Shown: in pieces, positions 2,957-55,310 of the stretch
Numbering within the stretch: the first letter of the stretch is position 1
How the letters are laid out: each line of letters begins with the position of its first letter
IMG/VR virus record: IMGVR_UViG_3300045283_000290
Span: 1-60,441 of that record
DNA: 60,441 nt
From: a virus
Lineage: Duplodnaviria; Caudoviricetes
Reading direction: 5' to 3' (one strand)
Position numbers and translations under genes: made by a program
Notes under the pieces: generated by a model
What the model was told of the DNA's origin: nothing
What the model saw: only the letters and a program-made list of their open reading frames with translations
The model's database searches: none

Positions 2957-3659
2957 AAGTCGATGAGCGAGTACTCCGGGTAATTGATCGAGCGACGTGC
3001 CGCGGAGATTTGCTCGTGCTGCCGGAGCAGTTGGAGCGGGAGGACTATCTCGCGGTCGACAAGGTTCTGAAGGCCGCGGGCGGCAAGTGGAATCGCGCAC
3101 GCGCCGGCCACGTCTTTGACGGCGGTGCGGCAGAGGCAATCGACCCGATCATCCTGACCGGGACGGTCACCGATGCAAGGCGCGAGTTCGGAGCGTTCTT
3201 CACCCCGCCGGATTTGGCCCGGCGAGCCGCAAAGCTTGCCGGCCTCCGCGACGGCTACCGCGTGCTTGAGCCGAGCGCCGGCCACGGGGCCCTGGTGCTG
3301 GCGGCACGCGCAGAGGCAAACGTCAAGGTCGACGCCGTCGAGCTGTATCCGGGAAGCTCCGTAGTGCTGAAGTCGGTCGATCTCGGCGGCGGCCGCCTCT
3401 GGGGGGAGACCGATTTCCTCGCCATGGGCCCAGGCGACGTCGGAAAGTTCGACGCCGTTCTGATGAACCCGCCGTTCGCGAAGATGGCGGACGCGAAGCA
3501 CGTCTTGCACGCGATCAACTTCGTTAGCCCTGGCGGTCGGATCGTTGCGATCATGTCGGCCGCAGTCACGTTCCGGCAAGCGGTCGACTATCGAATAATC
3601 CATGCCTATCCGGTTGTCACCCACAAACCCAAATACCCTCTAGATGTAGATGCTGACTC

Positions 3660-3854
3660 ATGATCGAAAAATCCAAAATACGGGATTTCTCAAAGCTCAA
3701 TATTCGAGACGGGGTGATCCATTACCGACTCTACCAGCAAGACGGAACGATGGTCGCCATGACCGTAAGAGACACCTATTCGATGCGGCTTTTCGTTTCG
3801 TGGGTACAAATTCACGACAGGTACACGGCTCACAAATCGGTCGCCGGAACATGA
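3660..3854 (+). CDS. Small hypothetical cargo protein (64 aa)
   Basis: Starts just inside the left end. ATGA overlap with the SpoU gene suggests translational coupling. Confidence 0.5.
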   Translation: MIEKSKIRDFSKLNIRDGVIHYRLYQQDGTMVAMTVRDTYSMRLFVSWVQIHDRYTAHKSVAGT

Positions 3855-4330
3855 ACATGCGCGGCTTTGCGGCAATCGGCCTCGACAATCCCAAAACGCC
3901 GTCGAATATCGGCGGCGTTCTGAGGGCTTGCGGATGCTATGGGGCCGCCCTTGTCGTTATCGGCGGCCCGCGCCCTGAGAGGCTTTCAAAGCTTTCCACG
4001 GACACCCAAAAGGCTTGGCGGCATATCCCTCACGTCCTCGTCGGCGACGTGTTTGATGCCATCCCGTATGACACTGTTGCGGTTGCCGTTGACTTGATTG
4101 ACGGCGCAATACCGCTGCCGCGTTACTGTCATCCCGAGCGCGCTTTCTACATTTTCGGGGCCGAAGACGCGACGCTCGGAAAGCGAATCCTTGATCGTTG
4201 CCGCGACAAGATCGTGGTGCCCACGAACTACTGCATGAATTTGGCGGCGACCGTGAACGTCGTCCTCTATGACCGGGCGGCAAAGGCCGCGCGCGCCGAC
4301 GTAGTTGCGAACAAAATGAGGCATCCATGA
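3851..4330 (+). CDS. SpoU/TrmH-family (SPOUT) RNA methyltransferase, cargo of E1
   Basis: GLDNPKTPSNIGGVLRA, YIFGAED and CMNLAATVNVVLYDR are SPOUT motifs 1-3. Confidence 0.88.
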   Translation: MNMRGFAAIGLDNPKTPSNIGGVLRACGCYGAALVVIGGPRPERLSKLSTDTQKAWRHIPHVLVGDVFDAIPYDTVAVAVDLIDGAIPLPRYCHPERAFYIFGAEDATLGKRILDRCRDKIVVPTNYCMNLAATVNVVLYDRAAKAARADVVANKMRHP

Positions 4331-4750
4331 CCGGCACTAGATGTAGAGGTGTGGGTGACAACCGGATAGGCATGGAATAATCCGATCGCTGACCTCGCAT
4401 GGAGGCGGCATCGAGCCGCTGCCGGCGGGCTCGTTCAAAAAATCCGGCACCGACGTAAATGCCTGCCTTGTGCATTTCGATGTATCCGCGCGGATGCGAG
4501 AGGAGGACCGGGCAATGAAGGCGCAGATGGAGAGCACCAGCGTGATCGATACCGTCACGCTTCCCGACGGGACGAAGGCGCGGGCGCGGCGATGGGACGG
4601 GGTCAGCGAGAAAGGCGTCCGGTTCTGCGCCTGGGTGCTGTTCTGTCAGGTCCCCGCCGCGGCTGACCAGGCGGAGTTCGAGCGCGCCCTCGCCGAGTCG
4701 AAGATCGAGCGCGAGCTGGTTTCTTTCGACTACCGCATGGTGGCGGACTG

Positions 4751-5236
4751 ATGCGCTACGGATTCAAGGCGCGCTTCGTTGCCCCGATCCAGGCCGGGCT
4801 CGGCATCCTGCCGATGTTCGAACACTGCGGCAAAGGCGTGCCGGCCGAGTTCACGCTTGAAGCCGGCGAGCTACGCCCATTCGATCCGGCGCGCGACCTT
4901 GATCCTCCGATATTCCCGAAGCGGCAGACCATCCGCGCGCACCGCAGGGGCCGCAGCCGCCACGTCCGCCCCGGCGAGGAGATTTCGCTGTGGCACGGTC
5001 CTCGTATGAAGCCGAAGCTGATCGGGCGGGCCCGGTGCACGAGCATCGAGCCGATTGGCTTTCGCGTGGCGTCGTCGCATCTTTTCCTCGAGCGGCCGAA
5101 CGGCTTTCAAAGCATCACGGACCTGTTTGCTCGGGCCGATGGCTTCGCCAATGCCGGCGAGATGCGCGACTTCTGGATCGCGGAGCACGGCCTCGGCATC
5201 TTCCGCGGCGTCATCATCCGGTGGGAGCCGCTGTGA
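4751..5236 (+). CDS. ASCH/PUA-like domain protein
   Basis: KRQTIR...PGEEISL...IGRARCTSIEPI...FARADGF...FW pattern. Confidence 0.65.
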   Translation: MRYGFKARFVAPIQAGLGILPMFEHCGKGVPAEFTLEAGELRPFDPARDLDPPIFPKRQTIRAHRRGRSRHVRPGEEISLWHGPRMKPKLIGRARCTSIEPIGFRVASSHLFLERPNGFQSITDLFARADGFANAGEMRDFWIAEHGLGIFRGVIIRWEPL

Positions 5237-5838
5237 GGTATCTCCCCGTCAACTTCACCTGGCGCGTCGTCGACGTCGTCGATGCCGACGGCGTCGCGGA
5301 GCGCCGCTTCGCCATGGTGCCGGCGAAGCGCTACGCGAACGTCTGCGGGCGCCAGTTTCACGAGGACGAGGAGTACCCGCTGGCGCCGCTCGAGGCGCGA
5401 TCGCGGTCGAGCCACAACCACTTCTTCGCCGCGCTCGCCGACGGCTTCGCGAACATCCCCGAGGACGTCGGCATGGTGCAGCAGCGGCTCAACATCAAGA
5501 CGATGCCGCCGGGCGGCTGGAAGGACGAGGAGCATTTCCGGGCATGGGCGCTGTGCGAGACCGGCTGGTGCGACCTCGACGAGTTCGAGTTCGACTCGCC
5601 GAAGGATGCCGTCACCTTCGCCCGCTACTGCCGCAAGAAGGACGACGAGCGCGACGCCTACACGATGATCCTCGTCCGCGGGAAGCACGTCACCATCAAG
5701 ACCCCGAAGTCTCAGAGCGCGGCGAACATGTCGAAGGAGCCGTTCGAACAGAGCAAGCGCGACGTGCTCGACCTTCTGGAGACGATCACCGGGCTCAAGA
5801 AGGGGACGCTCAACAAGGAGGCGGGGAAACACGCATGA
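5233..5838 (+). CDS. NinB/DUF1367-like phage protein
   Basis: RSRSSHNHFFA...PKSQSAANMSKEPFE pattern. GTG start overlaps the previous stop. Confidence 0.55.
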   Translation: MRYLPVNFTWRVVDVVDADGVAERRFAMVPAKRYANVCGRQFHEDEEYPLAPLEARSRSSHNHFFAALADGFANIPEDVGMVQQRLNIKTMPPGGWKDEEHFRAWALCETGWCDLDEFEFDSPKDAVTFARYCRKKDDERDAYTMILVRGKHVTIKTPKSQSAANMSKEPFEQSKRDVLDLLETITGLKKGTLNKEAGKHA

Positions 5839-6164
5839 CTCGCCAGCCCGACCTATTCGACATGCGCTCCCCGTACCGGAACCGGCCGGGGCACAAGGAG
5901 CGCGGCGGCACGTCCGAGGCCGCGGCCCGTGCGGTCGCAGGCGATGCCGACAACCTCCAGCGCGAGGTCTACCGCGCATTCGTGGCCGCCGGCCGGGACG
6001 GACTCACGGCAGACGAGGTCGCCGCCAGGGTCGGGCGCAGCGTGCTCTCGGTGCGCCCGCGCGTGACCGAGCTGGCGCACGCCGAGCGGCCGTGGATCGC
6101 GAGGACCGGCGAGCGCCGGCGCAACGAGAGCGGCCACAGCGCCGCGGTCTGGAGGGCTACATGA
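5835..6164 (+). CDS. Winged-helix DNA-binding protein
   Basis: GLTADEVAARVGRSVLSVRPRVTEL...TGERR. Confidence 0.7.
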   Translation: MTRQPDLFDMRSPYRNRPGHKERGGTSEAAARAVAGDADNLQREVYRAFVAAGRDGLTADEVAARVGRSVLSVRPRVTELAHAERPWIARTGERRRNESGHSAAVWRAT

Positions 6165-6334
6165 ATCACATCGTCACAACAGATGACGGGCAGTTTTGCG
6201 TCTTCGAGGACGACCATCAGGTTGCAGGCCCTTTCGCGACGGAAGCTGAGGCTTGGGCGTGGATCGACCGGCACGGCAAAGAGGGGCGCGCCGACTCCGA
6301 TCGTCACAACCGTATCAGGCAGGCATTCTCATGA
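6161..6334 (+). CDS. Small hypothetical protein
   Basis: ATGA-coupled, with upstream GGAGG. Confidence 0.55.
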   Translation: MNHIVTTDDGQFCVFEDDHQVAGPFATEAEAWAWIDRHGKEGRADSDRHNRIRQAFS

Positions 6335-6548
6335 ACGCGGCAACCTTCGTCCTCATCGCGACGCTCGCCTGCGGCGACCCCGCGCTGACGTTTCGCGAGT
6401 TCTTCGCCACCACCAGGGCGAGCCGGCGTTTCCTCGCGGCCATCACTACGAGACGACGGAGATGTACCTGACGCGCCAGGCCGAGGCGTTCGCCGACTTC
6501 CTCGACTACCGCGCCGCGCGCGCCGACAAATGCGGGAGGGCAAAGTGA
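6331..6548 (+). pseudogene. Small hypothetical protein with apparent frameshift near 6410
   Basis: MNAATFVLIATLACG... continues plausibly in another frame as QGEPAFPRGHHYETTEMY... Confidence 0.45.
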
Positions 6549-6880
6549 GAGAGATGTTTCACCCCCTGGAGTGGGAGCCGATCGCGTCGTGCCCCGAGGG
6601 CACCGCCGTCGAGGGCTGGGTCGATCGACCCGACGGCGGCTACCGGCTGCCGTTCCCGATCGCCTGGCGGCCGCGACGGGCGGCCGATGGGATTGCCATC
6701 TGCTCACCGGCAATGGTGCCGTCGGGATGCGACCCTCGTCGCCGGTGGCAAAACGTCGAGTACGAATCGCCAATCGATCTGGTCGTCGCGCCCTCGCACT
6801 GGCGACGCTGGCCCGAGCGGGTGTCGGCCGTCTTCGTCACCCGGGAGCTACCCCGACGCCAGGCCGGAGTCCGCGCGTGA
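6545..6880 (+). CDS. Phage hypothetical protein (DUF551-like)
   Basis: WEPIASCPEGT...PSHWRRWP. Confidence 0.55.
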   Translation: MREMFHPLEWEPIASCPEGTAVEGWVDRPDGGYRLPFPIAWRPRRAADGIAICSPAMVPSGCDPRRRWQNVEYESPIDLVVAPSHWRRWPERVSAVFVTRELPRRQAGVRA

Positions 6881-7197
6881 GCAAGATCACCGTCCAGGAC
6901 CAGCTCAAGGAGATAGAGGCGCTCATCCTCGACTTCCGGTGGGCGCGCGATACGCCGAGCGCGCCGGAGTGGCGCACGTTCCAGGTCCTCAAGATAATCG
7001 CCGCGAACCTGCGCGCTCAACTCCCCGGGGCTGCGGAGGAGGCGAGGGCCTCGATCACCCGCCGCTTCGGTGACCTGGACGCGCTGCGCGCGCGCATCGG
7101 CGGCGAACTCGGCGTCCTGCAGGAGTTGAACGCGCGATGGCCCGCGATCTCGCACGCGATCGAGGTGGCGTGCCGAATTGATCCGGAGGGAAAATGA
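6877..7197 (+). CDS. Hypothetical protein
   Basis: GTGA-coupled ORF with coding-like codon usage. Confidence 0.6.
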   Translation: MSKITVQDQLKEIEALILDFRWARDTPSAPEWRTFQVLKIIAANLRAQLPGAAEEARASITRRFGDLDALRARIGGELGVLQELNARWPAISHAIEVACRIDPEGK

Positions 7198-7596
7198 GCC
7201 GGAGCCGCGTGCACATGCTGATGGTTGCGGCCGCCAAGGTGCGGTCGCTCCAGCCGAAGATCGCCGAGGCGCTCGAGACGGCCCGCGCGCGAGCAGGCGG
7301 AGAGCCACGCCGAGGGCGCCGACTTCGACAAGCTGCGAGGCCGCCAGGAGGAGAGGCGCATCGAGCGCCAGCGGACACTCTTCCACGCCCTGCCGTCGTC
7401 GGGCCACACCGACCGGCTGCGCGGGGCGATGCTCCAGCGCGCCTACGACCTCATGTGGGACGGCTTCACGACCGAGTGTGACGCGCTCGTCGAGTTCCTG
7501 CCGAGCGACCTTGTCGAGGAGATGTTCGCGGCGTGGGAGGCCGACTCGATGGGGCGCGAGCCCCGCTCACGATTCTACGACGGAGGAAACAAATGA
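7194..7596 (+). pseudogene. Hypothetical protein with apparent frameshift near 7290
   Basis: MSRSRVHML...ETARA joins REQAESHAEG...FYDGGNK across a GCGCGC run. Confidence 0.5.
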
Positions 7597-7982
7597 CGAC
7601 GCTGATTGAGAGCATACTCATCGACCGCCTCATCCAGCAGGTGGAGCGGAGGACGCGGGCGGAAGATAAGAGCGGCGAGCACGTCGCCGCTCTGGGCGAC
7701 GCCGCCCTCCGCATCGTCGATCTGGAGAAGGACTTCGCCCGCGCCAACGAGAAGGCCGACGCGATGGAGAAGCTCGCCGACCGCAAGGCCAGCCAGGTCA
7801 ACGACATGATCCGGAGCCGGAACGACGCGGAGAAGCGACTGTTTGCTCTCTACGAGGCGGCCGACGCGCTGGTGAAGGAAATCGCCCGGCGGAAGAACCC
7901 GCACAAGGTCGACGACCTACGACGCCGCCTCGGCGTGGCGCTGCAGACCGCCCACGACGACTGCGGGCAGATTCCGTTCTGA
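7593..7982 (+). CDS. Coiled-coil hypothetical protein
   Basis: GGAGG RBS; ends in IPF. Confidence 0.65.
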   Translation: MTTLIESILIDRLIQQVERRTRAEDKSGEHVAALGDAALRIVDLEKDFARANEKADAMEKLADRKASQVNDMIRSRNDAEKRLFALYEAADALVKEIARRKNPHKVDDLRRRLGVALQTAHDDCGQIPF

Positions 7983-7984
7983 CG

Positions 7985-8602
7985 ATGCCGCGCCTCTATC
8001 GCCCGCACATCCCCGTCGAGGTCCGCTGCCGCGTCGCCCTGCGGCAGCTCGGCGAGATGTGGCCGGACCAGGTCATCGCCGCGCGGCGGCACACAGGGCG
8101 CGACGCGCACATCAAAAGCCTTGGCGTCCTCAAATCGAATAGCGGCGGCCTCGGGGCGCTGCTCGACGAGAGCCTCGCCAAGCTGGCCGATCTTCTGAAT
8201 TGTGAGGTCGGGCGCCTTCGGCTCGACCACAACCCTGCCCTGGGTGCGCGCGAGATCGTCGCCGAAGGCATCAAGAACGGCAAGCGGTGGGCGACGTACA
8301 GGCCCGATGCCAACAACCTCGAGTTTTTGATCTATCGGGAGAAGCACGCGCACCACATCAAGACGAACGTCCGCGGCGACGGCGCACAGCACCCCGACCG
8401 CGTGCTCATCAAGCGGGAGCGCCGGCGAAAACGGGAAAATACTTTAGGTGGGCGGCCTGTTTCGGGAAAACGCTTTAGGTGGGCCAAACACTCGCGCGGG
8501 TTGAAGGGCCGGCCGAAGGTGAAAATCCGCTCGCGCGGCTTCCGCAAGGTCGCCAAACAACGAAGGCGCCAGCTCCCGATCCCACCCAGGAGGATGACGT
8601 GA
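7985..8602 (+). CDS. HNH-like protein with basic C-terminal tail
   Basis: LDHNPALG...NNLEFLIY..KHAHHIKT. Confidence 0.55.
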   Translation: MPRLYRPHIPVEVRCRVALRQLGEMWPDQVIAARRHTGRDAHIKSLGVLKSNSGGLGALLDESLAKLADLLNCEVGRLRLDHNPALGAREIVAEGIKNGKRWATYRPDANNLEFLIYREKHAHHIKTNVRGDGAQHPDRVLIKRERRRKRENTLGGRPVSGKRFRWAKHSRGLKGRPKVKIRSRGFRKVAKQRRRQLPIPPRRMT

Positions 8603-9234
8603 CCGCCATTGCCCTCGCCGCGGCGATCGCCGCGAGCGTCGCCGGAGCCGAACTCAAGTCGCCGCGGTGGGAATTGGAGCTGACCCCGCATGGCTTCATC
8701 ATTTGGTTCCGCTTCGACCCGCCCGCCGGTCTGCAAGACAGAGACGGAGACGTGCGCGTGAGCAACCGCCCGATGATCCTCGGCATGAACAACCCGCTCT
8801 CCGACGCCCCGGAGCACGCGCTCTACCCGCTGCCGGCCGGCTGCACCGGCTCGCGGCTGTTCGGCATCCTGAAACTCGTGTGGCCCGAGATCGGGTTCCG
8901 CGACTACCTGCGCAGCTACGAGCGGCGCAACCTCGTCGTCGGCCAGGCTTGGAGCGCCGTGGCCGGAAGGATCGCAGCCGACGTGCTGCGCGAGGAGATC
9001 GCCAAGAGGCGGTCGGTCCAACAAATAGCCGTGCTCGGCGCGCAGACGTGGGCGGCGATTCATGGGCACCGCGACGACACGCCGGTGCTGGCCTCGCTGC
9101 GGGTCTCCAACATCGTCTGGAACCGGCTGCCGCATCCGAGCGGCCGGAACCCCTGGTACAATGTCGAGGAGAACCGGCTCGCCGCGGCGCGGCTGCTCCT
9201 CTCTCTCCTCACGCCGCTGCCGGAGACGACATGA
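8599..9234 (+). CDS. Hypothetical protein
   Basis: Coupled ORF with AGGAGG upstream. Confidence 0.55.
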   Translation: MTAIALAAAIAASVAGAELKSPRWELELTPHGFIIWFRFDPPAGLQDRDGDVRVSNRPMILGMNNPLSDAPEHALYPLPAGCTGSRLFGILKLVWPEIGFRDYLRSYERRNLVVGQAWSAVAGRIAADVLREEIAKRRSVQQIAVLGAQTWAAIHGHRDDTPVLASLRVSNIVWNRLPHPSGRNPWYNVEENRLAAARLLLSLLTPLPETT

Positions 9235-9414
9235 GCATCGAACGCCGCAACGGAAAGGTCGTCATCGAGTGCGACGTCGTGAACTGTCAGGCCGAGGTCG
9301 AGGGCGACGACTTCGAGAGCGCTTGGCGGGGACGCGAAGGGCGCTGGCTGGCGCGCGAGGAAGATCGGCCGCGACTGGGTGCGGGGCTGCCCGAAACACG
9401 CGAGGGACATCTGA
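9231..9414 (+). pseudogene. Small Cys-containing protein with an extra G in a GGGG run (~9330)
   Basis: Removing one G gives MSIERRNGKVVIECDVVNC...WRDAKGAGWRARKIGRDWVRGCPKHARDI*. Confidence 0.55.
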
Positions 9415-10223
9415 TGGGACTCATTCTGGACGACACCGGCAAGCCGGTGAAGGGCTTCGACGTGATCTATCCGCCGGGTTCGCAGGCGTGGGAGTACGCG
9501 CCGCTCGCGACGAACCCCTACAAGGGCTGCGGGCACGGCTGCGCCTACTGCTACGTGCCGCTCGCCACTCACCAGAAGCGCGCGGAGTTCGACGCCGGCG
9601 CCGTGCCGAGGCCAGGCTATTGGGGGCGCCTCGCCGACGACTGCCGCCGATATGAAGCCGCAGGCGTGCGCGAGCAGGTGCTCCTCTGCTTCAGCACCGA
9701 TCCTTATCACCCCGGCGACACATCGCTGACGCGAGGAACGCTGCTGACTCTAAGTCAGTTTGGCCTCGCCTTCTGCACGCTGACGAAGGGCGGAGAGAGA
9801 TCGATCCGCGACTGCGACCTCTTCCGGCCGGACCGCGACGCCTACGCCGCGACTCTCACGAGCCTGGACGACGCCTTCTCGCTGAAGTGGGAGCGCAACG
9901 CCGCGCTCCCGAGGGAGCGCATCGACACGCTGGCGACGTTCCGCAGCCGCGGCATCTTCACCTGGGTATCTATCGAGCCGACGCTCGACGCCGAGCACAG
10001 CCTCGCCGTCATCAGAGAGACGGCGTCCTTCGTCGACCTCTTCAAGATCGGCAAGGCGAACTATCTCGGCGAGTTCGGCAAGCGCATCGACTGGCGAGAC
10101 TACACGCTGCGCGTGATCGACCTCTGCCAGCGGCTCGGCGTCAAACACTACGTGAAGCGCGACCTCCAGCAATTCCTGCCGGAGGGATACCACAACCCGC
10201 TGCGCATCCCGCAGCATCACTGA
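9414..10223 (+). CDS. Radical SAM protein (SplB-like)
   Basis: NPYKGCGHGCAYCY (CxxxCxxC), STDPY, LTK and WVSIEP motifs. Confidence 0.85.
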   Translation: MGLILDDTGKPVKGFDVIYPPGSQAWEYAPLATNPYKGCGHGCAYCYVPLATHQKRAEFDAGAVPRPGYWGRLADDCRRYEAAGVREQVLLCFSTDPYHPGDTSLTRGTLLTLSQFGLAFCTLTKGGERSIRDCDLFRPDRDAYAATLTSLDDAFSLKWERNAALPRERIDTLATFRSRGIFTWVSIEPTLDAEHSLAVIRETASFVDLFKIGKANYLGEFGKRIDWRDYTLRVIDLCQRLGVKHYVKRDLQQFLPEGYHNPLRIPQHH

Positions 10224-10238
10224 AGGAGCAAAACCAAA

Positions 10239-10958: not shown

Positions 10959-10975
10959 GGTGATGGCGGTGGGCA

Positions 10976-11140
10976 TCAGAGCCTTCCCATCAGCAGCAAG
11001 ACGACGACGACGATCAGAATGACACCGATCACGCCGATGCCGCCGTTGCCGAAGCCGTAACCGGGGCCGCGAGGCGACCAGGGACCGATCCCTCCGAGCA
11101 GGAGGAGGATCAGGACCACGATGAGGATCGTCGACAGCAT
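10976..11140 (-). CDS. DUF3309-like small membrane protein (54 aa, not in the ORF track)
   Basis: MLSTILIVVLILLLLGGIGPWSPRGPGYGFGNGGIGVIGVILIVVVVLLLMGRL*. Confidence 0.75.
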   Translation of the reverse strand: MLSTILIVVLILLLLGGIGPWSPRGPGYGFGNGGIGVIGVILIVVVVLLLMGRL

Positions 11141-11160
11141 TTGGGGCCTCGCGGTCTACA

Positions 11161-11370
11161 TCAACGCGGCTCTGGCGGCGTTGTTCCGGGGATTGCCCGC
11201 GTGATGTCCACGATCCACTCGCTGTCCGGCCGGAAGTTGTCGCCGCCGAGAGCAGCGCGCGGGGCGTTGATGAACACCTCGGCCGGCTGCTCGCCGCCGT
11301 TCGACGTGAGATGAATCTGCACGACCCCGTTGTTGTTGCGCATCGAGCGGCACTGGCATTTCAGGCGCAT
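11161..11370 (-). CDS. Hypothetical protein
   Basis: ORF fits the operon spacing. Confidence 0.5.
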   Translation of the reverse strand: MRLKCQCRSMRNNNGVVQIHLTSNGGEQPAEVFINAPRAALGGDNFRPDSEWIVDITRAIPGTTPPEPR

Positions 11371-46494: not shown

Positions 46495-49400
46495 TCAGGT
46501 CGAGGCGACCGAGCCGCCCACGCCGGTCGAGGAGAACTTCCCCTCCGGGTCGCGCGGGTGTTTGCTCTCCTCCCACTTCGCCTCGTCGCCGGCGAGGCCC
46601 TCCGCGATCTTGCGGTCGCGGGCGCGGTTGAGGAAGTCGTCGAGCCGCTTCGCCGGCGCCAGGACGACGCCCTCGGTCTCATTGTCGTGCTGCGACGGGT
46701 CGCCGGCCTCGCGCTCCGCGTAGTAGTAGCGCGTCATCGACGTGTCGCCCTCGTGGTCGCCGGCGTGCCCCGTGATGCGCACCTTGAGCCCGCTCTCCTC
46801 GTACGCCTCCTTGATGGCGTTCGCCTGGAGCGAGAGCCCGGCGTCGACGCCGCCCTTCGGGAAGGTCGCCTCGTAGCCGCCGAAGCCGCCGCGCGGCTGC
46901 ACGAGCCAGATGCGCCCGTCGGCCTCGCGCACGATGACGCCCGAGGACGGTTTCTTGCCGGTCGGCACGGTAAACTCGGGCTCGTCGAGATCGATCTGGC
47001 CGTCGACGCCAGCCCAGTCCGACGGCGCGCGCCACGCCTTGAACGGAACGCCGTTTAGCTCCTTCACCGGCATGGCCTCGCCGGCCGGGACGACCATCGT
47101 GCCCGTCGGCTTCTTCGGGTCGCCCTCGGCGCCGAACCTGCGGGCGCGCTCGGCGATGTCGGCCTTCCGCTTGACCAGCTTCTCCGCCAGCTTGTCGTCG
47201 CCGCCCGCGGCCTTGACGGTCTCGCGGATTCGGTCGTCCGGGATCCCGGTGACGAGGCGCGCGCTCTCGCGGAGCTGCCCCGGCGTCATCTTGCCGAACA
47301 GGCCGGCCGAGTCGCCGTTGACCGCGGGGTCGCGCAGGCTGTCCAGCTCGCCGACGCTGTCGCCGAACGCCTTGCCCTTGGGACCGCCCTGCGCGCGGTA
47401 CTCCAGCGCGCCGCCGAGGTCGAGCGCCGTCGGCACGCCGCCCACGGTGCCGATGTTGTCGCCGCCGAGGCCGACCGCGTCCCAGTTGCCGAGCCAGGCG
47501 TGCACGGCGAACTCGCGCTGCGCCTCGCGCCGCTCCTCCTTCGAGAGCTTCGAGACGTTGTCCTTCGATAGTTTCGACATCTCGGTCGCGATCGAGCCGC
47601 CGCCCTCGACCGGGCGGTACTTGAGCGTGGGCGAGCCGGCCAGGCCGTAGAGCGCGGCCGCGACCATCTCATTTCTGACGTGCGCCGGTGACTTGCCCTT
47701 CTTGACGTAGAACCGCTTGCCGTCGGCATCCTCGAACACGCCGCCGGGGTTCGAGCCCATCTGCGCGCCGACCTTCGTGAGCTTGGACGCGTCGAGCGGC
47801 GCGCCGATGTTGCGGGGCCCGGCCGGCTTCGCCCACCCGACCGACGGGTGCGAGGCCGGGCCGTACGGTAGCCCGAGCTGCGGCGCGCGGAACGTGCCGC
47901 TGCCGCCGCCGCCGGTGATCTTGCCGGGAATCTTCAGGTGGGTCGGCGTGCCTCCGCCGGAGCCCGCGGTGAACTTGCCGCCGTCATCTCGGGGGTGCTC
48001 GGCCTCGCGGAACTCGTCGGCCGCCCCATCACGCGGGGCGTCGCGGCCGAAAGGGGTGACGTTCTCGCCACCGCCCTCCCCACCTTCGCCGCCTTCGCCG
48101 CCCCCGCCGCCGCCGCCGCCGCTCGCGCGCTTGCCGCCGGGCTCGAGGCCCGCATCTTCCTCCTCCTGGAGGTCCGGCACGTCGTCGACGTCGATGTCGG
48201 GGTAGCGGCTCTTAGGATCATCGGCGATCGCCTGGCGCTCCTCGACCTGGTCGATGACGCCGTCGCCGATGCGGATGCTCGCGGTCTCCGCGCGCATCTT
48301 CTCAAGCTCGGCCTCCTCCTTCTCGGACATCGCCTCGAGCGGCACGAACTCGTGCGTGATGTCGTCGTCGATCTCACCCCACAGCGAGAGGTTCATCACC
48401 CACCCGACGTAGTCGAGCTTCGGCGCGTACAGCTTGCCCTGGTAGGAGCCGATCGTCTCGTCGAACGCCCGCAGCTCGCCGTCGGACGTGGCGTTGAGGC
48501 CCTGCGGCTGCATGCCGGTGAACTTGACCGCCGGGATGCGCGCCACGCTCATGATGTCCTCGTGCGCCGAGGACTTCAGCTCGTGGAGCCCGGCGATCGG
48601 GTGCGCGACCGACTTGACGTCCTCCGATTCTTTGTTGGCGACGAACATGCCCTGGTTGTCGCGCATGATCGTGAACCCGGCGATGCGCGCGATAAGGTCG
48701 GCCGCACCGCCGCCGGGCGCCAGCAGCGTCGAGAGGTCGGTGAGCAGCACCATCGTGGCGTAGGACTGCACCAGGTCGGCGACGCTCTCGCGCGTGCGCA
48801 CCCAGATGTCGACGTACGGCTTCGCCATCTGAGTGAGCGAGAGGCCGCCGAACGAGTAGGCCGGCTTGAGCAGGTCGGGCACCGGGCGCCCGATGAACGT
48901 CGGGATGCGGGAGCGATGAATCTGCCTCCCCATCACGTACCAGACCTGCGGGTTGTACCAGTCGAGCGCGAGCGGATTGCTCGCGTTGTAGGTCATCGGA
49001 TAGACCCACATCGGCTCGATGTGCGCGACGCGCTTGAGCCAGTCGCGCCCGACCTTCGCCTTGAGGGCATCGCGCAGCTGCTCGCGGCTCAGTCCCGGCG
49101 GGACGAGCGGCTGCTTTAGTTCCTCGTCGTCGTCCTTGCCGTCGTCGAGGAACAGGTGGCTGCGCCCCATCAGCCCGTCGTAGAGCGCGGCGTCGCAGAA
49201 GCGGTCGACCAGCTGCAGGTGCTTCTCCATGTCCCGCAGCTCGCGAATCTTCGCGCTCTTGTCGTCGTCGCCGAGCTTCGTCGCCCGCGAGGCCGGGCCG
49301 TTCGGCTTGCGCTTCTCCGCGATGCGCGCCGCGGCCGCCTCGTCGCCCTTGTCGCGCTTCTTCTCGTCGTCCTCGCCGGTGCCCTTCCAGCGCCAGCCCT

Positions 49401-49863
49401 TGCGCGTCATCTCGGTCGCGATCGTCTCGCTGATGACGCGGAACTCCGGCCGCTGCGCCAGCTCAGAGAGCAGCGGGTAGCCGAGGAACATGAGCCCCTC
49501 GGATTCGACGGCGCCGAGCAGGCCGCCGGTCAGCCACTGCTGCTGCGCCCACGCGTTGTTCGCCACGAGCGCGCTGTCGCTCGCCATCCGGTGCTCGCGC
49601 GCCGGCATCGCGGCCTTCGGGTGGAGGAACTGCGTCGCGTACCTGCCCTCGATCCGGTAGGGGCACCAGTCCAGCGTGCGCTCGCGCTTCTTCGCCGCCG
49701 CCTGGCTGGCCTCGACCAGCGCGCCCATCTGCTCGATGCTGATGCGCGTCTTCGCCGGCGCGGGCTTCGGCTCGGCCGGCACGGTGGCGACGGGGGCCTT
49801 CCTCCGCGGCGGGCCTGCACCCTCGCGACGGCCGCCCCACCCACCCTTGCGCTTGTAGGCCAT
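46495..49863 (-). CDS. Portal protein (DUF1073) fused to kinase-like and Nudix domains
   Basis: Portal core: FLGYPLLSELAQRPEFR, IHRSR, G.QP.GLNATSDGE. Then GSNPGG...YVK...WLGNWDAVG..DN...LDLGG. Then Nudix box FPKGG...AIKEAYEESGL. Confidence 0.88.
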   Translation of the reverse strand: MAYKRKGGWGGRREGAGPPRRKAPVATVPAEPKPAPAKTRISIEQMGALVEASQAAAKKRERTLDWCPYRIEGRYATQFLHPKAAMPAREHRMASDSALVANNAWAQQQWLTGGLLGAVESEGLMFLGYPLLSELAQRPEFRVISETIATEMTRKGWRWKGTGEDDEKKRDKGDEAAAARIAEKRKPNGPASRATKLGDDDKSAKIRELRDMEKHLQLVDRFCDAALYDGLMGRSHLFLDDGKDDDEELKQPLVPPGLSREQLRDALKAKVGRDWLKRVAHIEPMWVYPMTYNASNPLALDWYNPQVWYVMGRQIHRSRIPTFIGRPVPDLLKPAYSFGGLSLTQMAKPYVDIWVRTRESVADLVQSYATMVLLTDLSTLLAPGGGAADLIARIAGFTIMRDNQGMFVANKESEDVKSVAHPIAGLHELKSSAHEDIMSVARIPAVKFTGMQPQGLNATSDGELRAFDETIGSYQGKLYAPKLDYVGWVMNLSLWGEIDDDITHEFVPLEAMSEKEEAELEKMRAETASIRIGDGVIDQVEERQAIADDPKSRYPDIDVDDVPDLQEEEDAGLEPGGKRASGGGGGGGGEGGEGGEGGGENVTPFGRDAPRDGAADEFREAEHPRDDGGKFTAGSGGGTPTHLKIPGKITGGGGSGTFRAPQLGLPYGPASHPSVGWAKPAGPRNIGAPLDASKLTKVGAQMGSNPGGVFEDADGKRFYVKKGKSPAHVRNEMVAAALYGLAGSPTLKYRPVEGGGSIATEMSKLSKDNVSKLSKEERREAQREFAVHAWLGNWDAVGLGGDNIGTVGGVPTALDLGGALEYRAQGGPKGKAFGDSVGELDSLRDPAVNGDSAGLFGKMTPGQLRESARLVTGIPDDRIRETVKAAGGDDKLAEKLVKRKADIAERARRFGAEGDPKKPTGTMVVPAGEAMPVKELNGVPFKAWRAPSDWAGVDGQIDLDEPEFTVPTGKKPSSGVIVREADGRIWLVQPRGGFGGYEATFPKGGVDAGLSLQANAIKEAYEESGLKVRITGHAGDHEGDTSMTRYYYAEREAGDPSQHDNETEGVVLAPAKRLDDFLNRARDRKIAEGLAGDEAKWEESKHPRDPEGKFSSTGVGGSVAST

Positions 49864-50350
49864 CAGCGCAGCCCCCGGAGAACCGCCAGCGCGGTGTTGA
49901 GCGCGCGCCTGACCGAGATGCCGTCGCTCTTGCCGCGGCGCTCAGCGAGGCACCTGTGGCCCTCCAGGCAGGCATTGACGTCGGGGTTTAGCGCGAGCCA
50001 CGCCCGCCGCTCGTTCGTGAGGCGGTCGAGCCGGCACGCCTGGCCGGTGCGCACCGCCATAAACTCGTCGGGCAGGAGGTGGCCCTTCTCGTTGTTGCAG
50101 GTCGCGCAGCAGATGACGATGTTCTCGATGGCGTCGCTCCCGCCGCGGGCCTGCGGAATCCGGTGGTCGCGCGTCGGCGCGCGCGGCGTGTTGACGCCGC
50201 GGCTCATCGGGTGGCCGCACCACGGGCACGGCTTGCCCAGGAACCGCAGGAGGTAGCCACCTCCCTCCATCGTGAAGCGCTCGCGCTCGCGCGCCCCGAT
50301 CGGCCGCATGCGCAGCGCGGTCCCGGCGATCTGCTCCGGCAACACCTGCA
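49863..50350 (-). CDS. HNH endonuclease
   Basis: CPWCG...TRDHRIPQARGG....NIVICCATCNNEKG. Confidence 0.88.
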
Positions 50351-50369
50351 TCGCCCCTTCCCTCCGGGA

Positions 50370-50396
50370 ATCAACTTGATTAGTAATCAAGTTGAT
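50370..50396. promoter_or_regulatory. Perfect 13-1-13 inverted repeat, candidate operator
   Basis: ATCAACTTGATTA-G-TAATCAAGTTGAT, AT-rich, between divergent genes. Confidence 0.65.
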
Positions 50397-50424
50397 CTAA
50401 CCTGCCAGCCGCCAGGAGCACAAG

Positions 50425-50751
50425 ATGTCCGAGACCAACGGATCAAAGCCGCCGGAGCCGCCAGCGGAAGGCCGCCCGCTCTCCCCGACCGAGAGCTACA
50501 TGCGCCAGCACCTCGGCGTGATCATGTGCGGGATGAACGCCACGAACCCGCTGGTTCCGGCGCCAGTGCTGGTCGAGGAGGCCGCGCGCGCCATGGGCTT
50601 CGCTCTCGCGGCCCTCCTCATCACCACGCCCGAGGACCGCGGCAAGCTCTACCAGGCCATGCGCCGGGGCTTCCGCGACGGGATGGACGAGGCGCCGCGG
50701 CTCGAGCCGCTGGTGGCGCCGGCGACCGCCGACACGGCGGTGAAGGCGTGA
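50425..50751 (+). CDS. Hypothetical protein (counter-oriented moron-like)
   Basis: AGGAG RBS. Confidence 0.6.
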   Translation: MSETNGSKPPEPPAEGRPLSPTESYMRQHLGVIMCGMNATNPLVPAPVLVEEAARAMGFALAALLITTPEDRGKLYQAMRRGFRDGMDEAPRLEPLVAPATADTAVKA

Positions 50752-50899
50752 CGGTCGATTGGACGCGCTGGTGCGAGGGGCCGGAGACGCAGGCGCGGCT
50801 GAGGGCCGAGTACCTGGAGACGATCGCCAAGGAGCGCGATGCCGCAGCCGCCCGGTGGAAGCGGATGACGCCCGCGCAGCAGGCCGCATGGCCGCGGGT

Positions 50900-52597
50900 C
50901 TAGCGCCGGCGACGCCCCGCGGCCGCGAGCGCCTGGACCACGTCGGGCGTGAACGCGGCGGGCCCGGCCTCCACCCTGGCGAACCGCATCATGCAGCCGT
51001 CGGCGAGGTTCGGCGACGGCATGCCCTCGGGCGCCTTGTCGATGACGACCTTCCCCACGCCGTTCGTCGCGTAGGTCGCCTGCGATAGCTCGCGCTCCAG
51101 CTTGTCGAGGTTCGGCATGTCGGGGTCGAGGTCGATGATGTCGTCGGGCTCGCACGCCTGGCCCTTCTCGATCCACAGCCACGTCCGGTGGAAGCGACGG
51201 CGCAGGTCCATCCAGCCCTGCGCCTTGGCGTTCTGATAGTAGTCCTTGTTGAGCCGCCCGCCCTCGCCCTCGCGCCCCTTCGTCCCCTCGACGATGCCCT
51301 CGGGGTCTACGACGGCGCCGGATGCGCGCCAGCCGATGACGCGGTGCGTCTTGACCTTCTCCGCCCTCCGCCGGTCGTTGATCACGCGGGCATCGCCGCG
51401 CACCAGGGCGCCGAGGCCGTCGGCGTCGTAGCGCCACTCGTCGAAGCCGTGCTCGTCGGCGAGCGCGAACGCCCGCTCCACGGTGGCGAACGTGTCGGAA
51501 CCCTTGCCGCTCCACTCCTCGGCGACGCTGACCGTCGTGCCCTGGCCGCCGACGAAGGCGTTCGCGTCCTTGCCCTCGTCCGCGACGTCGAGCGCGGCGA
51601 GCTTGCGGCCGGACGGCGCGATGCCGAGCCGGCGCTTCGCCCCGATCGCCGCGCGCACCCACGTCCCGGGGATGACGATGCCGGCGACCGACGCCGATCG
51701 GTCGCGGTCGATCTCCTGCGCGACGACCACGGGGTCGAGGTCGCGCTGCTGGCGCTTGTACCACTCGTCGTCCTTGCGGGGGTCGTGGCGCCAGTCGAAG
51801 ACGAACGTCTTGACGCGCTTCTTGATGATCCGCTGCGCCGTCGGGTTCGCGCTGCCGTTGACCGAGGAGATGTCGATGCGGCAGTTCGTCGTCTGCGAGA
51901 GCGCGAAGTCGACGAGGTCCGGCCGCTCCAGGTACTCGGCCTCGTCCACGAAGTAGATCGACGTGCGGTCGCCGCGCCCGAGCTGGTCGCCGGCCTCCCC
52001 GGTGATGATCGAGCCGCTCTGCGGGAAGTTGATCCGCATGAAGGGCGCGTCGCGCCACGGCGTCCAGCCGCCGCGGAACTCCTCGGGCAGGTTCGTCATG
52101 AAGAGCCGCGCCTTCGGCAGGATCGGCTTGAACGTGCCGATCTTGTCGACGTACTCCTCCTTGCGGGAGCCGAAGCCCACCGCCATGCCCTCGAAGAATA
52201 GGCAGGCCGTGCAGGCGAACGCGACCGCCTCCCACGTGACGCCGCACTCGCGCGCCTTCTCCGTCGCGCCTGGCTCGCGCGAGCGCCAGCGCTCCCACAC
52301 CCAGTGAATCCACTCCCGCTGCTTCTCGAACAGCACGAACGGGACGATCGCCGGCAGGCCGATCTCGGGATTGCGCGGGTCGTAGGTGACGCCCCAGTCG
52401 CTGATGAAGTCGCAGATGCCGGCCGGCCCGGCCTTGTAGTACGCGCGGATGGAGGGGAGGTCCTCGGGGTGCGCGCGGATGTCGTCCAGCGCGGCGAGCC
52501 GCTGCGAGAAGATCGCGGCGTAGTCCGGGTTCTTGAAGTCGACGCGGTGGCGAGGCGCGAAGCTGACCGTCGGCGCCGCGAGCGCTCGGGCACTCAT
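50900..52597 (-). CDS. terL: Terminase large subunit
   Basis: EKARECGVTW Walker A-like, FVDEAE Walker B, ALDVADEG.D and SPNLADG nuclease motifs. Confidence 0.92.
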   Translation of the reverse strand: MSARALAAPTVSFAPRHRVDFKNPDYAAIFSQRLAALDDIRAHPEDLPSIRAYYKAGPAGICDFISDWGVTYDPRNPEIGLPAIVPFVLFEKQREWIHWVWERWRSREPGATEKARECGVTWEAVAFACTACLFFEGMAVGFGSRKEEYVDKIGTFKPILPKARLFMTNLPEEFRGGWTPWRDAPFMRINFPQSGSIITGEAGDQLGRGDRTSIYFVDEAEYLERPDLVDFALSQTTNCRIDISSVNGSANPTAQRIIKKRVKTFVFDWRHDPRKDDEWYKRQQRDLDPVVVAQEIDRDRSASVAGIVIPGTWVRAAIGAKRRLGIAPSGRKLAALDVADEGKDANAFVGGQGTTVSVAEEWSGKGSDTFATVERAFALADEHGFDEWRYDADGLGALVRGDARVINDRRRAEKVKTHRVIGWRASGAVVDPEGIVEGTKGREGEGGRLNKDYYQNAKAQGWMDLRRRFHRTWLWIEKGQACEPDDIIDLDPDMPNLDKLERELSQATYATNGVGKVVIDKAPEGMPSPNLADGCMMRFARVEAGPAAFTPDVVQALAAAGRRRR

Positions 52598-52817
52598 CGC
52601 AATAGCCCGGCGAGCGGGTGCCCCGCACGCACTCGACCGAAGCGCACCCACCTGCGGGCCGCCAGCTCGCACAGGGGCGCCGTGAGCGCGATTCCGTTGG
52701 CGCAGCCCGTGTGGGTCGCGCGCATCTTGCAACCGCACCAGCAACGGCGCCGCGTTTTGACCGGCAGCATGTAGCGCGGGTGCTCGACCGCCGACGCTCT
52801 TCGACCCCACTCGCTCA
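52594..52817 (-). CDS. Small Cys-rich protein
   Basis: RRCWCGC..RATH.G.ANG.AL...C. Confidence 0.45.
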
Positions 52818-53300
52818 CGTCAGTCCCTCGCGCCGCGGCCGTGCAGATAGAGCACGTCGGACATCTCGCGCGCGGTGAGCGGGAAGGCACCGGAACGTTC
52901 CCGCCTCTCCTCGACGCTAATGCTGTACTGCGGTGCAGGTACGCAAGCTGCGAGCGCGCATCGCGATTGCGCCTCATCATGGACTCCTCAGGGCTGTCAG
53001 GAGAGCGTTTCGTTCAGCGATCTTGCGCTCTGCGTCGGAATTGCCGGCGCCAAGGTTGACGCGACGATAACAGGTCCAGCAACAGACTTGTCCGCGTCCC
53101 TTTGATCCCGAGCAAAGCGGGCAGGTATCGTCCGCTCGGACTGCGGGGTTGTCTTCCATGTCATGCCCTCGCGTGGATGATCGCCGGGCGCGCCCATCTA
53201 CGCTGGAAGGCGCGCCACTCGAGAAGGTCGGGAGGTCCGAACCGCGCCAGCGCGTCGTCGGGCGTCGCCTTCGTCTTGCGCGGGAAGACGCGGATGATCC

Positions 53301-53756
53301 TCATCGCACCGCCTGCACGCGCCGCTGATAGATGCGCGAGAGTTCCTCGGCGTCGTGCAGCGCCACGACCTTCTCGCCGTCGATCATGCGCGGGTCCGGC
53401 GGCAGCGGCGGCGGGACGACCGCGATCGCCTTGAGCTTCGGGCTCTGGTACTCGGCGAGCTTGGCCGCCGTGTCGACCGCGAGGCGCGCGTACTTCTCGA
53501 ACTTCGCGTCGTCGGGCGTGCGGCCGGGCGCCGACACCACCCCGGGCGGGAGCGGCTGGTAGGCCGCCGCCATCCCGGCGAACAGCTCCATGAAGTCGTG
53601 GAGGACCTGCTTGCCGAGCTTCTCGGGCTTGCCGCCGGTGAGCATCTGCTCGGCGATGCGCGCCTTCTCCTCGCGCTCGATCGTGAGCTTGTTGCGGGAG
53701 CCGCGGGGTCGGCCGCCGGGGTGCTTCGGCTTGGTCGTCGTGGGGAGCGGCGTCAT
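53301..53756 (-). CDS. Terminase small subunit-like protein
   Basis: GGRPRGSRNKLT...AA.KLA.YQSPKL.AI; upstream of terL. Confidence 0.7.
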   Translation of the reverse strand: MTPLPTTTKPKHPGGRPRGSRNKLTIEREEKARIAEQMLTGGKPEKLGKQVLHDFMELFAGMAAAYQPLPPGVVSAPGRTPDDAKFEKYARLAVDTAAKLAEYQSPKLKAIAVVPPPLPPDPRMIDGEKVVALHDAEELSRIYQRRVQAVR

Positions 53757-53795
53757 GGAGAGTATTTTACTGCGGAAACTCGGCGGGCGCCAAGC

Positions 53796-54443
53796 TCAGC
53801 GCATGCGGACGCGCCCCACGCGCCCGTGGTCCCGACCTTTCAATTCAGCGGGCGCGTCGAAGCGGAAGGCATACTTGTCCACGATCTCGATCGCGAGGCG
53901 GCGCACGCGCGCGGCGTCGCCGACCTCGATGGTCTTCGCGTCGTGCTGGCGCAGGCGGTTCTCGAGCATGCGCTCGATCGGGCGCGCGGGATCCGTGCTC
54001 TTGAAGCGCGCGGCAATGTCGACGAGCGTCTCGCGGATGATCTTGCCGGCCTCGACGGTCTGCTCGGCCTGGGCGATCTCGTTGACCATCTGCAGGCGGA
54101 ACTCGGACAGGAGGTCGCGGCGGCGCGGGTCGTCGGCCGGGTCCAGGTTCGTGATGTATTTGTTGAGCGCCGTCTCGACGAACGCCTGGATGATGCCGAG
54201 AGCGGCCGCGCGGTCCGCGTTCTCGGTGGGCTCGTCGCCCATGGCGCCGGTCGCGTCGTAGCGGGCGCGCAGGTTGGGGTCTGAGAGGACGACGAGCGCG
54301 CGGCTCGTGCGGTTGAACGCGTCGACCGAGCCGCCGGCGTCGGGGTGCGTCTTCTTGCGGCGACGCTTGCCGGCGCGCTTGATCTCCTCGGTGGAGGCGT
54401 CGCGCGGCAAGCCGAGTTCCTCGTAAGGGTCGAAGGTCGTCAT
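53796..54443 (-). CDS. J-domain (DnaJ-like) protein
   Basis: DPYEELGL...EIKRA...THPD.GG...LSDP..RARYD. Confidence 0.88.
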   Translation of the reverse strand: MTTFDPYEELGLPRDASTEEIKRAGKRRRKKTHPDAGGSVDAFNRTSRALVVLSDPNLRARYDATGAMGDEPTENADRAAALGIIQAFVETALNKYITNLDPADDPRRRDLLSEFRLQMVNEIAQAEQTVEAGKIIRETLVDIAARFKSTDPARPIERMLENRLRQHDAKTIEVGDAARVRRLAIEIVDKYAFRFDAPAELKGRDHGRVGRVRMR

Positions 54444-55017
54444 TGCCTGTTTATGGTCACAAGGGCCGCATTGACGTCTGTGCCGGATTTCTTGAAGGAG
54501 CCCGGTGGCAGCGCCTCGATGGCCCCGCCGTTGTGAGAGGCCAGCGATCGAACGATCTGATAGTCCGTCGTCTCGCGGAATGTCACCGCAGCCGACATAA
54601 TCGCCACGAGATGACCGCCCTCGTCGAGGAAATTGACGGCGTGCAGCACGTGGCGCGCATCGGCCATCTTCGCGAACGGCGGATTCATGAGCACGCGATC
54701 GAAGCGGCCTATATCGCCCGGACTGGCCGCCAGGAAGTCGACCTCGCCCCACAGCCGGCCGCCGCCGAGGTCGATCGACTTCATCACGACCGCACTCCCC
54801 GGGTAAAGCTCGATAGCATCGACCTGGACGTCGGCCTCCGCTCGGGCGGCGAGGACCAGCGCGCCGTGCCCGGCACTCGGCTCCAGCACTCGCATGCCTG
54901 CCCGAAGGTCTGCGAGTTTAGCTGCGCGGCGCGCGAGGTCCGGCGGCGTGAAAAACACACCGAACTCTCGCTTGGCGTCCGTCACAATGCCGGTAAGCAG
55001 AATGGGATCAATGGCGC

Positions 55018-55310
55018 CATGCTTATCCGGTTTAGACACACAGCCCTACATCTTGTGTCTAGGCTGATTTCTTTGCAGCGGGCGCCGCGCGCTTGGCCGC
55101 TTCGAGAAATAGCGAGATGTCGTTGAGATGCCCGAAAAACTCTGCCTGCTTGGACTTAGGCAGCGCTTTGAACAACTCTTCGACCGCTTTCATGGTCTCT
55201 GTCGCCTCTTCCTTGGTAAATTCGCCCTGTGCCATCGTCACTCTCCTTTGGTTGATGATCACAACATCTAGTAGGTCTCAGCGTTTGTGTGTGTTAACCG
55301 GATAAGCATG
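55018..55310 (-). mobile_element. Non-autonomous IS1595 (ISSod11-type) cargo cassette E2, 293 bp
   Basis: TIRs CATGCTTATCCGGTT.A.ACACACA (23/25 match). 8-bp TSD AATGGCGC (55010-55017, 55311-55318). Confidence 0.95.
55059..55235 (-). CDS. 58-aa helical cargo protein of E2
   Basis: AAAGGAGAG RBS; MAQGEFTKEEATETMKAVEELFKALPKSKQAEFFGHLNDISLFLEAAKRAAPAAKKSA fills the cassette. Confidence 0.75.
   Translation of the reverse strand: MAQGEFTKEEATETMKAVEELFKALPKSKQAEFFGHLNDISLFLEAAKRAAPAAKKSA

Follow-up and report, generated by a model that had tools for sequence, protein, structure and literature searches.

The 60,441-bp IMG/VR virus record IMGVR_UViG_3300045283_000290, analysed here over its whole length (the window; classed as linear and about 83% complete), contains two short elements, E1 and E2, each bounded by inward-facing copies of the same tip and filled with cargo genes. 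We consider it probable that both are mobile insertion cassettes (MICs), non-autonomous members of the ISAcr1/ISSod11-like group within the IS1595 family of insertion sequences (ISs), with ends that are bipartite. Judging from its conservation in related elements, the 10-nt box that lies inside each of their four ends is likely to be the inner module of a bipartite terminal repeat of about 39 bp, marking the inner edge of the functional end. E1 and E2 are members of a large, apparently undescribed, phage-borne family of cassettes that carry varied small genes.

The 15-nt tip CATGCYTATCCGGTT is present in exactly five copies in the window, at 3601 (+), 4374 (−), 55018 (+), 55310 (−) and 58743 (+), which form the two inward-facing pairs that delimit E1 (3601/4374) and E2 (55018/55310), plus a lone copy at 58743. 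Allowing up to three mismatches, there are six matches against 1.26 expected, a number reached in none of 100 shuffles. The 10-mer CWAGATGTWG has four copies in the window, all inside the pairs (Table 1), whereas 0.08 are expected and the shuffles gave one at most. When the two elements are oriented by their cargo, the upstream ends are identical at 38 of 49 positions and the downstream ends at 32 of 40, and identity then falls to 1 in the next 11 nt and 6 in the next 20 nt, respectively. Counting inwards, the upstream box of both elements covers positions 40-49 of the 5' end and the downstream box positions 29-38 of the 3' end, and the cargo stop codon is separated from the downstream box by 6 nt in E1 and by 3 nt in E2. 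The recomputed alignment of the ends agrees with the identities, offsets and stop-to-box gaps reported in a first-pass annotation of this DNA. Its description of the 10-mer as a direct repeat holds for E1, where the boxes match at 10/10 positions as a direct and 8/10 as an inverted repeat, but less so for E2, where the direct score is just 8/10, equal to the inverted one.

E1 and E2 are true insertions with target site duplications (TSDs), which in both cases are perfect and 8 bp long. Each element interrupts one of two paralogous N6 DNA methylase genes, A and B. When E1 and E2, plus one TSD copy each, are removed in silico, the paralogues align without gaps at both sites, so each methylase gene provides the empty-site reference for the other. 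In addition, the E1 site is uninterrupted in 36 of 36 homologues of methylase A from other viral contigs. The 26-mer spanning the E1 junction has no match in metagenome contigs, and no second copy of E1 or E2 was found in the searched collections. The 5' part of methylase B (55311-55498) also has a 1-nt deletion relative to paralogue A, and this gene is frameshifted as well as interrupted.

Table 1. Positions of the two cassettes, their parts, the resident IS and the DNA methylase genes in the window (IR, inverted repeat; ORF, open reading frame).
Feature	Position	Strand	Basis
N6 DNA methylase A, 5' part (3' part at 4375-4751), interrupted by E1	2950..3600	+	PF02384
E1 TSD GAATAATC, left copy	3593..3600		8 bp, perfect
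E1, mobile insertion cassette, 774 bp, no transposase	3601..4374	+	Tips; in-silico removal restores gap-free methylase alignment
E1 upstream terminal IR, outer module, 25 nt	3601..3625	+	25/25 against reverse complement of 4350-4374
E1 spacer, ~11 nt longer than that of the downstream end, shifting the box from ~29 to 40	3626..3639	+	Outside-in comparison of ends
E1 upstream box CTAGATGTAG, putative inner IR module	3640..3649	+	Motif scan, end alignment
E1 cargo ORF1, 64 aa, no family match	3660..3854	+	ORF list, family profile scans
E1 cargo ORF2, 159 aa, SpoU-family RNA 2'-O-methyltransferase-like	3851..4330	+	PF00588, 59.7 bits (cut-off 29.7)
E1 downstream box CTAGATGTAG; outside-in, CTACATCTAG	4337..4346	+	Motif scan, end alignment
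E1 downstream terminal IR, outer module	4350..4374	-	End alignment
E1 TSD GAATAATC, right copy	4375..4382		8 bp, perfect
N6 DNA methylase B (paralogue of A), 3' part (5' part at 55311-55498), interrupted by E2	54440..55017	-	PF02384
E2 TSD AATGGCGC (+ strand)	55010..55017		8 bp, perfect
E2, mobile insertion cassette, 293 bp, cargo on minus strand	55018..55310	-	Tips, TSD, 23/25 IR
E2 downstream box CAAGATGTAG; outside-in, CTACATCTTG	55046..55055	-	Motif scan, end alignment
E2 cargo, a single ORF (58 aa), own AGGAG ribosome-binding site, no family match	55059..55235	-	ORF list, family scans
E2 upstream box CTAGATGTTG, element positions 40-49	55262..55271	-	Motif scan, end alignment
E2 TSD AATGGCGC, second copy	55311..55318		8 bp, perfect
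ParB_N + N6_N4 DNA methylase gene, 5' end abutting left tip of the resident IS	57379..58742	-	Pfam
Resident transposase-bearing IS1595-family element	58743..60441	+	Left tip equal to that of E1 over 15 nt
IS1595-family transposase, 349 aa	58833..59882	+	PF12762, 112.4 bits; PF12760, 47.7 bits; NF033547, 187.8 bits (cut-off 75)

In PMC3129680, IS ends around passenger genes without a transposase are called a MIC, whereas an IS that carries passenger genes is a transporter IS (tIS). Both elements have IS-type terminal IRs at their two ends (25/25 in E1, 23/25 in E2), with tips identical to those found in transposase-bearing relatives, and one or more passenger genes, and neither their ORF lists nor Pfam, which yields SpoU_methylase in E1 and nothing transposase-like in either, reveal a transposase; E1 and E2 are therefore MICs and not tISs. 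Classification as MITEs (miniature inverted-repeat transposable elements) was rejected, as E1 carries two ORFs and E2 one. In E1 the stop codon of ORF1 and the start codon of ORF2 overlap as ATGA, and the ORF2 protein has a weak match to TrmL.

The parent family is indicated by the element at the lone tip copy, the resident IS, which has further ORFs downstream of its transposase and runs off the contig end, with its right end beyond the window. According to PMC8101967, TSDs of 8 bp and a zinc finger at the N terminus are features of the IS1595 family; the transposase of this tip-sharing element has a DDE_Tnp_IS1595 domain and an N-terminal zinc ribbon, and the TSDs of E1 and E2 have the length given for the family. 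The closest named IS in the RefSeq annotation is ISAcr1; its transposase (labelled 'IS1595-like element ISAcr1 family transposase') shares 62.8% identity with that of the resident IS across 97% of the protein. ISAcr1 resembles E1 and E2 in its tips (xxTGCCTATCCGGTT), in its 8-bp TSD (ATATATTG) and in having the box in both ends, where it lies at 30-39 in inverted orientation (CTAGATCTAG left, CTAAATGTAG right). It differs from them in being autonomous and cargo-less, with a length of 1080 bp and the same box offset at both ends, whereas E1 and E2 have one box shifted to 40. We take ISAcr1 to be a member of the ISSod11 group, for which the tip consensus is presumably nnnGCnTATC; the tips of E1 and E2 look compatible with it, and the label 'ISSod11-type' is plausible for them. 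To our knowledge, the mechanism of the IS1595 family has been little studied.

The first-pass annotation had proposed that ISSod11-type transposases mobilise the cassettes in trans, with the resident transposase as a candidate. However, the inner box of the resident IS, CTTGTGCTAG, differs from that of E1 and E2 at 3 of 10 positions, so this IS may not be their cognate mobiliser, and mobilisation by its transposase in particular is uncertain. After the transposase gene, the region 59824-60410 holds ORFs of 72 aa (hydrophobic) and 109 aa, neither with a family match, and a short TCAACC stretch right after the transposase stop resembles the start of the right end of related ISs. From this resemblance, the extra genes of the resident IS may have been inserted at the inner edge of its right end.

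In order to place E1 and E2 among their relatives, we retrieved DNA by the 15-nt tip alone, obtaining at least 120 genome stretches and at least 120 viral stretches; the counts below refer to the matches listed. Many single tip matches in the genome collection, which comprises 596 Gb, are probably due to chance. When forward tips were matched with reverse tips at a distance of 60-6000 nt, 57 distinct elements outside the window emerged, 41 of which have a perfect 8-bp TSD. These elements form three groups, namely bacterial-genome MITEs (101-214 bp), ISs (about 1.1 kb) and about 35 cassettes (184-1191 bp), the last almost all in viral contigs. Two pairs, L200 (4686 bp, no TSD) and L196 (1165 bp), probably join ends of different elements, and are counted within the 57 but not in the CWA....TWG tallies given below. 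The existence of a cassette family, as anticipated in the first-pass annotation, is thus borne out, since the architecture with boxes at 40 and 29 recurs with unrelated cargo in other viral contigs. We found no description of phage-borne IS1595/ISSod11 MICs in the literature searched, a coverage that does not extend to Siguier et al. 2009, which is possibly relevant. The TSDs of the 41 elements are AT-rich (mean GC 0.34 versus 0.56 in the 300-nt flanks), which suggests that insertion prefers AT-rich 8-mers.

Within these ends the box has the form of a quasi-palindrome, CTA-S-AT-S-TWG. With up to one mismatch, CTASATSTWG is matched 48 times across the 114 ends, and 45 of these matches lie at positions 29, 30, 38 or 40; shuffles gave 0.89 on average and never more than 4. 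The box is found at one of these positions on at least one end in 27 of the 57 elements and on both ends in 18; 11 have the 40/29 layout and 6 fit exactly the pattern given in the first-pass annotation, although one of the 6, L200, lacks a TSD and is probably a spurious pair. The looser pattern CWA....TWG occurs in 35 of 70 MIC ends at positions 29, 30 or 40 (elsewhere in 2), in 6 of 22 MITE ends and 5 of 18 ends of ISs or tISs found by their tips, at position 30 only, and in 15 of 62 ends of ISs or tISs found by their transposase, at 29 or 30 only. Conservation of the motif and its positions far beyond chance is therefore confirmed, but not its direct orientation, as the downstream box is fully inverted in three of the 11 elements with the 40/29 layout (L143, L164 and L204). 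Read from outside in, the common, E2-like form is CTAGATGTTG upstream and CTACATCTTG downstream, with flanks in inverted symmetry and the two central bases direct. The shift of the box between the two ends, 40 versus 29/30, recurs in family members, and L160 and L220 have it at 40 on both ends.

The box is not restricted to elements with cargo. The cargo-less ISs L078 and L104 carry it at 30-39 on both ends in inverted orientation, like ISAcr1, and it is also present on both ends of coding-free MITEs. A box kept at a set distance from the tip in elements that have nothing to express, and at both of their ends, argues for a role in transposition and favours the bipartite-end reading. The same distribution weakens the proposal of the first-pass annotation that the 10-mer is a dedicated boundary for capture or exchange, for which the box is an unlikely candidate. 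In that proposal the 10-mer would be a recombination site at which cargo is exchanged site-specifically or by microhomology, in a way similar to integron cassettes, the IS ends being mere transport. It would account for the perfect direct repeat in E1, for the more than 10 unrelated cargos with the same inner edges, for the two central bases being direct in 8 of the 11 elements that have boxes at 40 and 29, and for the edges of the E2 cargo described below; the fully inverted downstream boxes and the elements with a box at 40 on both ends speak against it. Empty single-box elements, for which the first-pass annotation had proposed a search, did not appear, as the viral collection holds no element of 70-130 nt with these tips. 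The capture-site reading is less economical than that of bipartite ends and, in our view, very unlikely to be right.

The bipartite-end reading can be set out as follows. Each cassette would consist of two functional IS ends around passenger genes, without a transposase, and each end would comprise an outer module (positions 1-25) and the inner box, which in the parent ISs lies at about position 30. The transposase would recognise both modules, and if so the stretch from tip to box would be conserved while the inside is free to vary, so that similarity stops past the box and the cargo seems to fill the space exactly. On the upstream side of the cargo an insert of 10-11 nt, about one helical turn, would move the box to 40, where its TAG-ATG may be reused for expression, many relatives starting their cargo ORF there; cargo ORFs would end at their own stop or at stops resident in the downstream end. 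Cargo would be captured from phage genes through illegitimate recombination, with later selection favouring cassettes that are compact and expressed, and a transposase acting in trans would move the cassettes, preferring AT-rich 8-mers.

Several findings weigh against this reading. The box is absent from both ends in 30 of the 57 elements, including the cargo-less ISs L019, L025 and L059, and is thus not universal among elements with this tip. None of the relatives that encode a transposase was found to have E2-like inner ends, and the left box of the resident IS deviates, as stated above. A pure extension of the IR predicts neither the better direct than inverted match of the E1 boxes nor the direct central bases of most elements with the 40/29 layout. 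Contact of the transposase with positions 29-49 is a prediction from conservation. In addition, the common edge at upstream position ~51 around more than 10 different cargos is unexpectedly sharp for random breakpoints alone.

This edge can be followed in the class of 14 elements with the 40/29 architecture (E1, E2 and 12 others), in which column identity remains at 70% or more up to position 51 upstream and 40 downstream and then drops to background. The upstream end is 10-11 nt longer than the downstream one, and in E2-like members the extra nucleotides include GAG(A/G), located 8-11 nt before the ATG of the box. It may be asked whether the box is kept mainly as an expression adaptor, supplying a TAG to end translation from outside, an ATG start or a -10-like element for passenger or transposase, and stops at the far end, with no part in transposition. 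In 12 elements the longest ORF does start at the box ATG, at offset 44 (L139, L147, both L158 elements, L164, L165, L173, L214 and L238) or offset 34 (L145, L146 and L197). Stops resident in the end sequence terminate cargo ORFs at a distance from the tip of 41 nt (E2 and six others), 28 nt or 14 nt; the transposase genes of related tISs stop 44-46 nt short of the right tip. The left ends of the tISs L247 and L266 have a sigma-70-like site (TTGACA/TTGACT-17-TAGTAT) with its -10 overlapping the box region, and E1 and E2 are co-oriented with the genes that they interrupt. However, a copy of the box without start function lies on the downstream end, and non-coding MITEs have it on both ends; promoter scans gave no sigma-70-like site in E1, E2 or the left end of the resident IS; and six of the 14 class members (E1, E2, L136, L143, L159 and L204) start downstream of the box at their own codons. 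We give a purely expression-related role a low, though real, probability. The orientation of cargo relative to flanking genes elsewhere, assessed by GC content by codon position, gave low or mixed values in 30 of 34 cases, with 2 co-oriented and 2 opposed.

At the insertion sites themselves, the frame of truncated methylase A runs into the upstream end of E1 (3650-3663) and ends at a TGA that overlaps the ATG of ORF1 (ATGA), and in E2 the incoming host frame, already frameshifted, terminates at the box TAG immediately before the box ATG. These host-frame stops abutting the starts may reflect translational coupling, or chance.

Regarding the origin of the cargo, other viral contigs contain 15 homologues of the E2 protein (46-84% identity), with flanking tips at none of the 15 loci; a tip-like match at 3 mismatches in L300, ~1.3 kb from one homologue, looks like chance. 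The SpoU protein has two homologues, both at loci without tips. From these native homologues we conclude that the cargo is recruited from ordinary phage genes. By eye, the similarity of E2 to the native locus L297 begins within a few nt of the upstream box, and on the 3' side the native stop has been replaced within ~9 nt of the downstream box; the ribosome-binding site of E2 also resembles the native one of L297. In the tIS L257:1261-2584, the left end and the first ~20 codons match the methylase cassette L197 and are followed by other DNA ahead of the transposase gene. This remnant of an earlier cargo places at least one breakpoint inside a cargo, so that at least some cargo turnover breaks there, which is a further point against exchange at the box. 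The possibility, raised in the first-pass annotation, that cargo breakpoints map to the repeat is matched by the edges of E2, but not by L257.

The same annotation had raised the alternative that both cassettes are internal deletions of one larger IS that carried both cargos. Searching with tblastn, we found no relatives of the five passenger proteins of the window among the fetched loci, other than out-of-frame overlaps of the 72-aa ORF with transposase C-termini, and, as neither cargo is present in any fetched element, a larger IS with both is unsupported.

A Pfam search with 30 cassette proteins gave three matches above the curated cut-offs (D12 N6 DNA methylase, NADAR and N6_N4 DNA methylase), six below threshold (PAPS reductase, radical SAM, nucleoside deoxyribosyltransferase, C-5 methylase, a generic methyltransferase and a domain of unknown function, DUF) and none for the other 21. 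PHROGs matched 3 of 20 passenger proteins, adding a DNA methyltransferase (L207) and a radical-SAM protein (L168).

Cargo is also found in autonomous relatives. A search with the resident transposase gave 26 viral loci (77-94% identity) and 22 genome loci, the closest of the latter in metagenome-assembled genomes of Hyphomicrobiales and other alphaproteobacteria; the GenBank phage collection holds no close relative, its three matches all being at or below 33% identity. Where the ends can be placed, the elements are mostly tISs with the order left IR (IRL), variable small ORFs, transposase and right IR (IRR), and some have extra genes after the transposase instead. The tISs of the L247-L277 series (e.g. 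L253:919-2584 and L272:889-2596) have transposases 80-90% identical to one another and a common left end, which includes a -35/-10-like site, a GGGCG...CGCCC hairpin and a GGAG site, and yet carry quite different sets of 1-3 small ORFs that end exactly at the transposase ATG. These differing sets point to sharp-edged cargo turnover in autonomous elements as well.

The prevalence of such tISs leads to a further alternative, that E1 and E2 are inert fossils of passenger-carrying ISs that lost their transposase in situ and never moved as cassettes. The right end of the close relatives of the resident transposase resembles the MIC downstream end, and the failure to find a second copy of either element is also compatible with this idea. 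Against it, the IR of E1 and both pairs of TSDs are perfect, and the same 40/29 end pair surrounds at least 10 different cargos at different sites, which is not easily produced by decay in situ. Furthermore, IS1595 transposases are encoded in only 5 of 33 MIC-bearing viral records, and among the 11 that are at least 90% complete they are found in 3 and absent from 8; those present have mostly other tips, or none within 2 mismatches. We regard the fossil interpretation as most improbable, and movement as MICs remains the reading that we prefer.

The window has exactly three DNA methylase genes by four Pfam DNA-methylase families (2950-4751, 54440-55498 and 57379-58742), and each has been struck by one element of the IS family, the resident IS being located at or just before the 5' end of the third. 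The three genes account for 5.5% of the window's length and contain 4.8-6.4% of its AT-rich 8-mers, and from target composition alone three hits in three would be expected about 2 times in 10,000; selection against methylases, or targeting, may be responsible. In another phage record, an E2-like cassette (L147:4675-5148) has inserted precisely where a ParB_N + N6_N4 methylase gene (flank 5149-6609) has its start codon, with a TSD, ATGAATAT, that duplicates the methylase ATG; the kind of gene and the 5' position are the same as for the resident IS of the window. Among 10 flanking fragments of other MICs, this is the one with ParB_N + N6_N4_Mtase, one has DUF5131 (L160) and eight have no Pfam match, and no homologues of the window methylases were found beside other family members.

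A more far-reaching proposal can be built on these observations, namely that the ends are a standardised vehicle for accessory genes at the level of single ORFs, used by phages that probably infect Hyphomicrobiales, with a start in the box, stops at the far end and a dedicated swap of cargo at the box, and that it is selected or targeted to replace phage DNA methylase genes and is a main swap route for nucleic-acid-modification and counter-defence genes. We consider this proposal, taken as a whole, rather improbable.

MICs and passenger-carrying ISs are known mostly from bacterial chromosomes and plasmids. Like E1 and E2, known MICs such as MIC231 of Bacillus cereus and those with qnrS2/qnrD have IS-type IRs, passenger gene(s), no transposase, TSDs and presumed mobilisation in trans by a related IS; a title cited in PMC3129680 pairs MIC231 with IS231, whereas the parent of E1 and E2 is the IS1595 family. 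Unlike these MICs, the family of E1 and E2 is phage-borne and has common ends of 51 nt and ~40 nt around many unrelated small ORFs, often with a start codon inside the end. The tIS concept is given in PMC3129680, which cites Siguier et al. 2009. The tISs share with E1 and E2 the presence of passenger genes, and the element at 58743 and at least 20 relatives are of this type; other examples in the IS1595 family are presumably ISPna2+, ISNwi1+ and ISNha5. Integron cassettes are likewise promoter-less single-ORF units with sharp boundaries and highly variable cargo, but they have an attC-type site, in place of which E1 and E2 have two IS-end boxes. The TSDs and terminal IRs indicate DDE transposition of the whole E1 or E2 unit, in contrast to integron cassettes, and no integron-like empty single-site platform (70-130 nt) was found in the viral collection.

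Overall, one IS1595-type end pair is found around dozens of different small genes in viral contigs, among them genes for DNA methylases, for a NADAR protein and for a SpoU RNA methylase. Phages yielded no copy that was free of cargo. The sharp common edges of the cargo offer a handle for cataloguing such genes in metagenomes, and the conserved box is a candidate for a second transposase-contact site in the IS1595 family. If the cassettes move, they would give phages a concrete, testable way to acquire and trade "moron"-type accessory genes.

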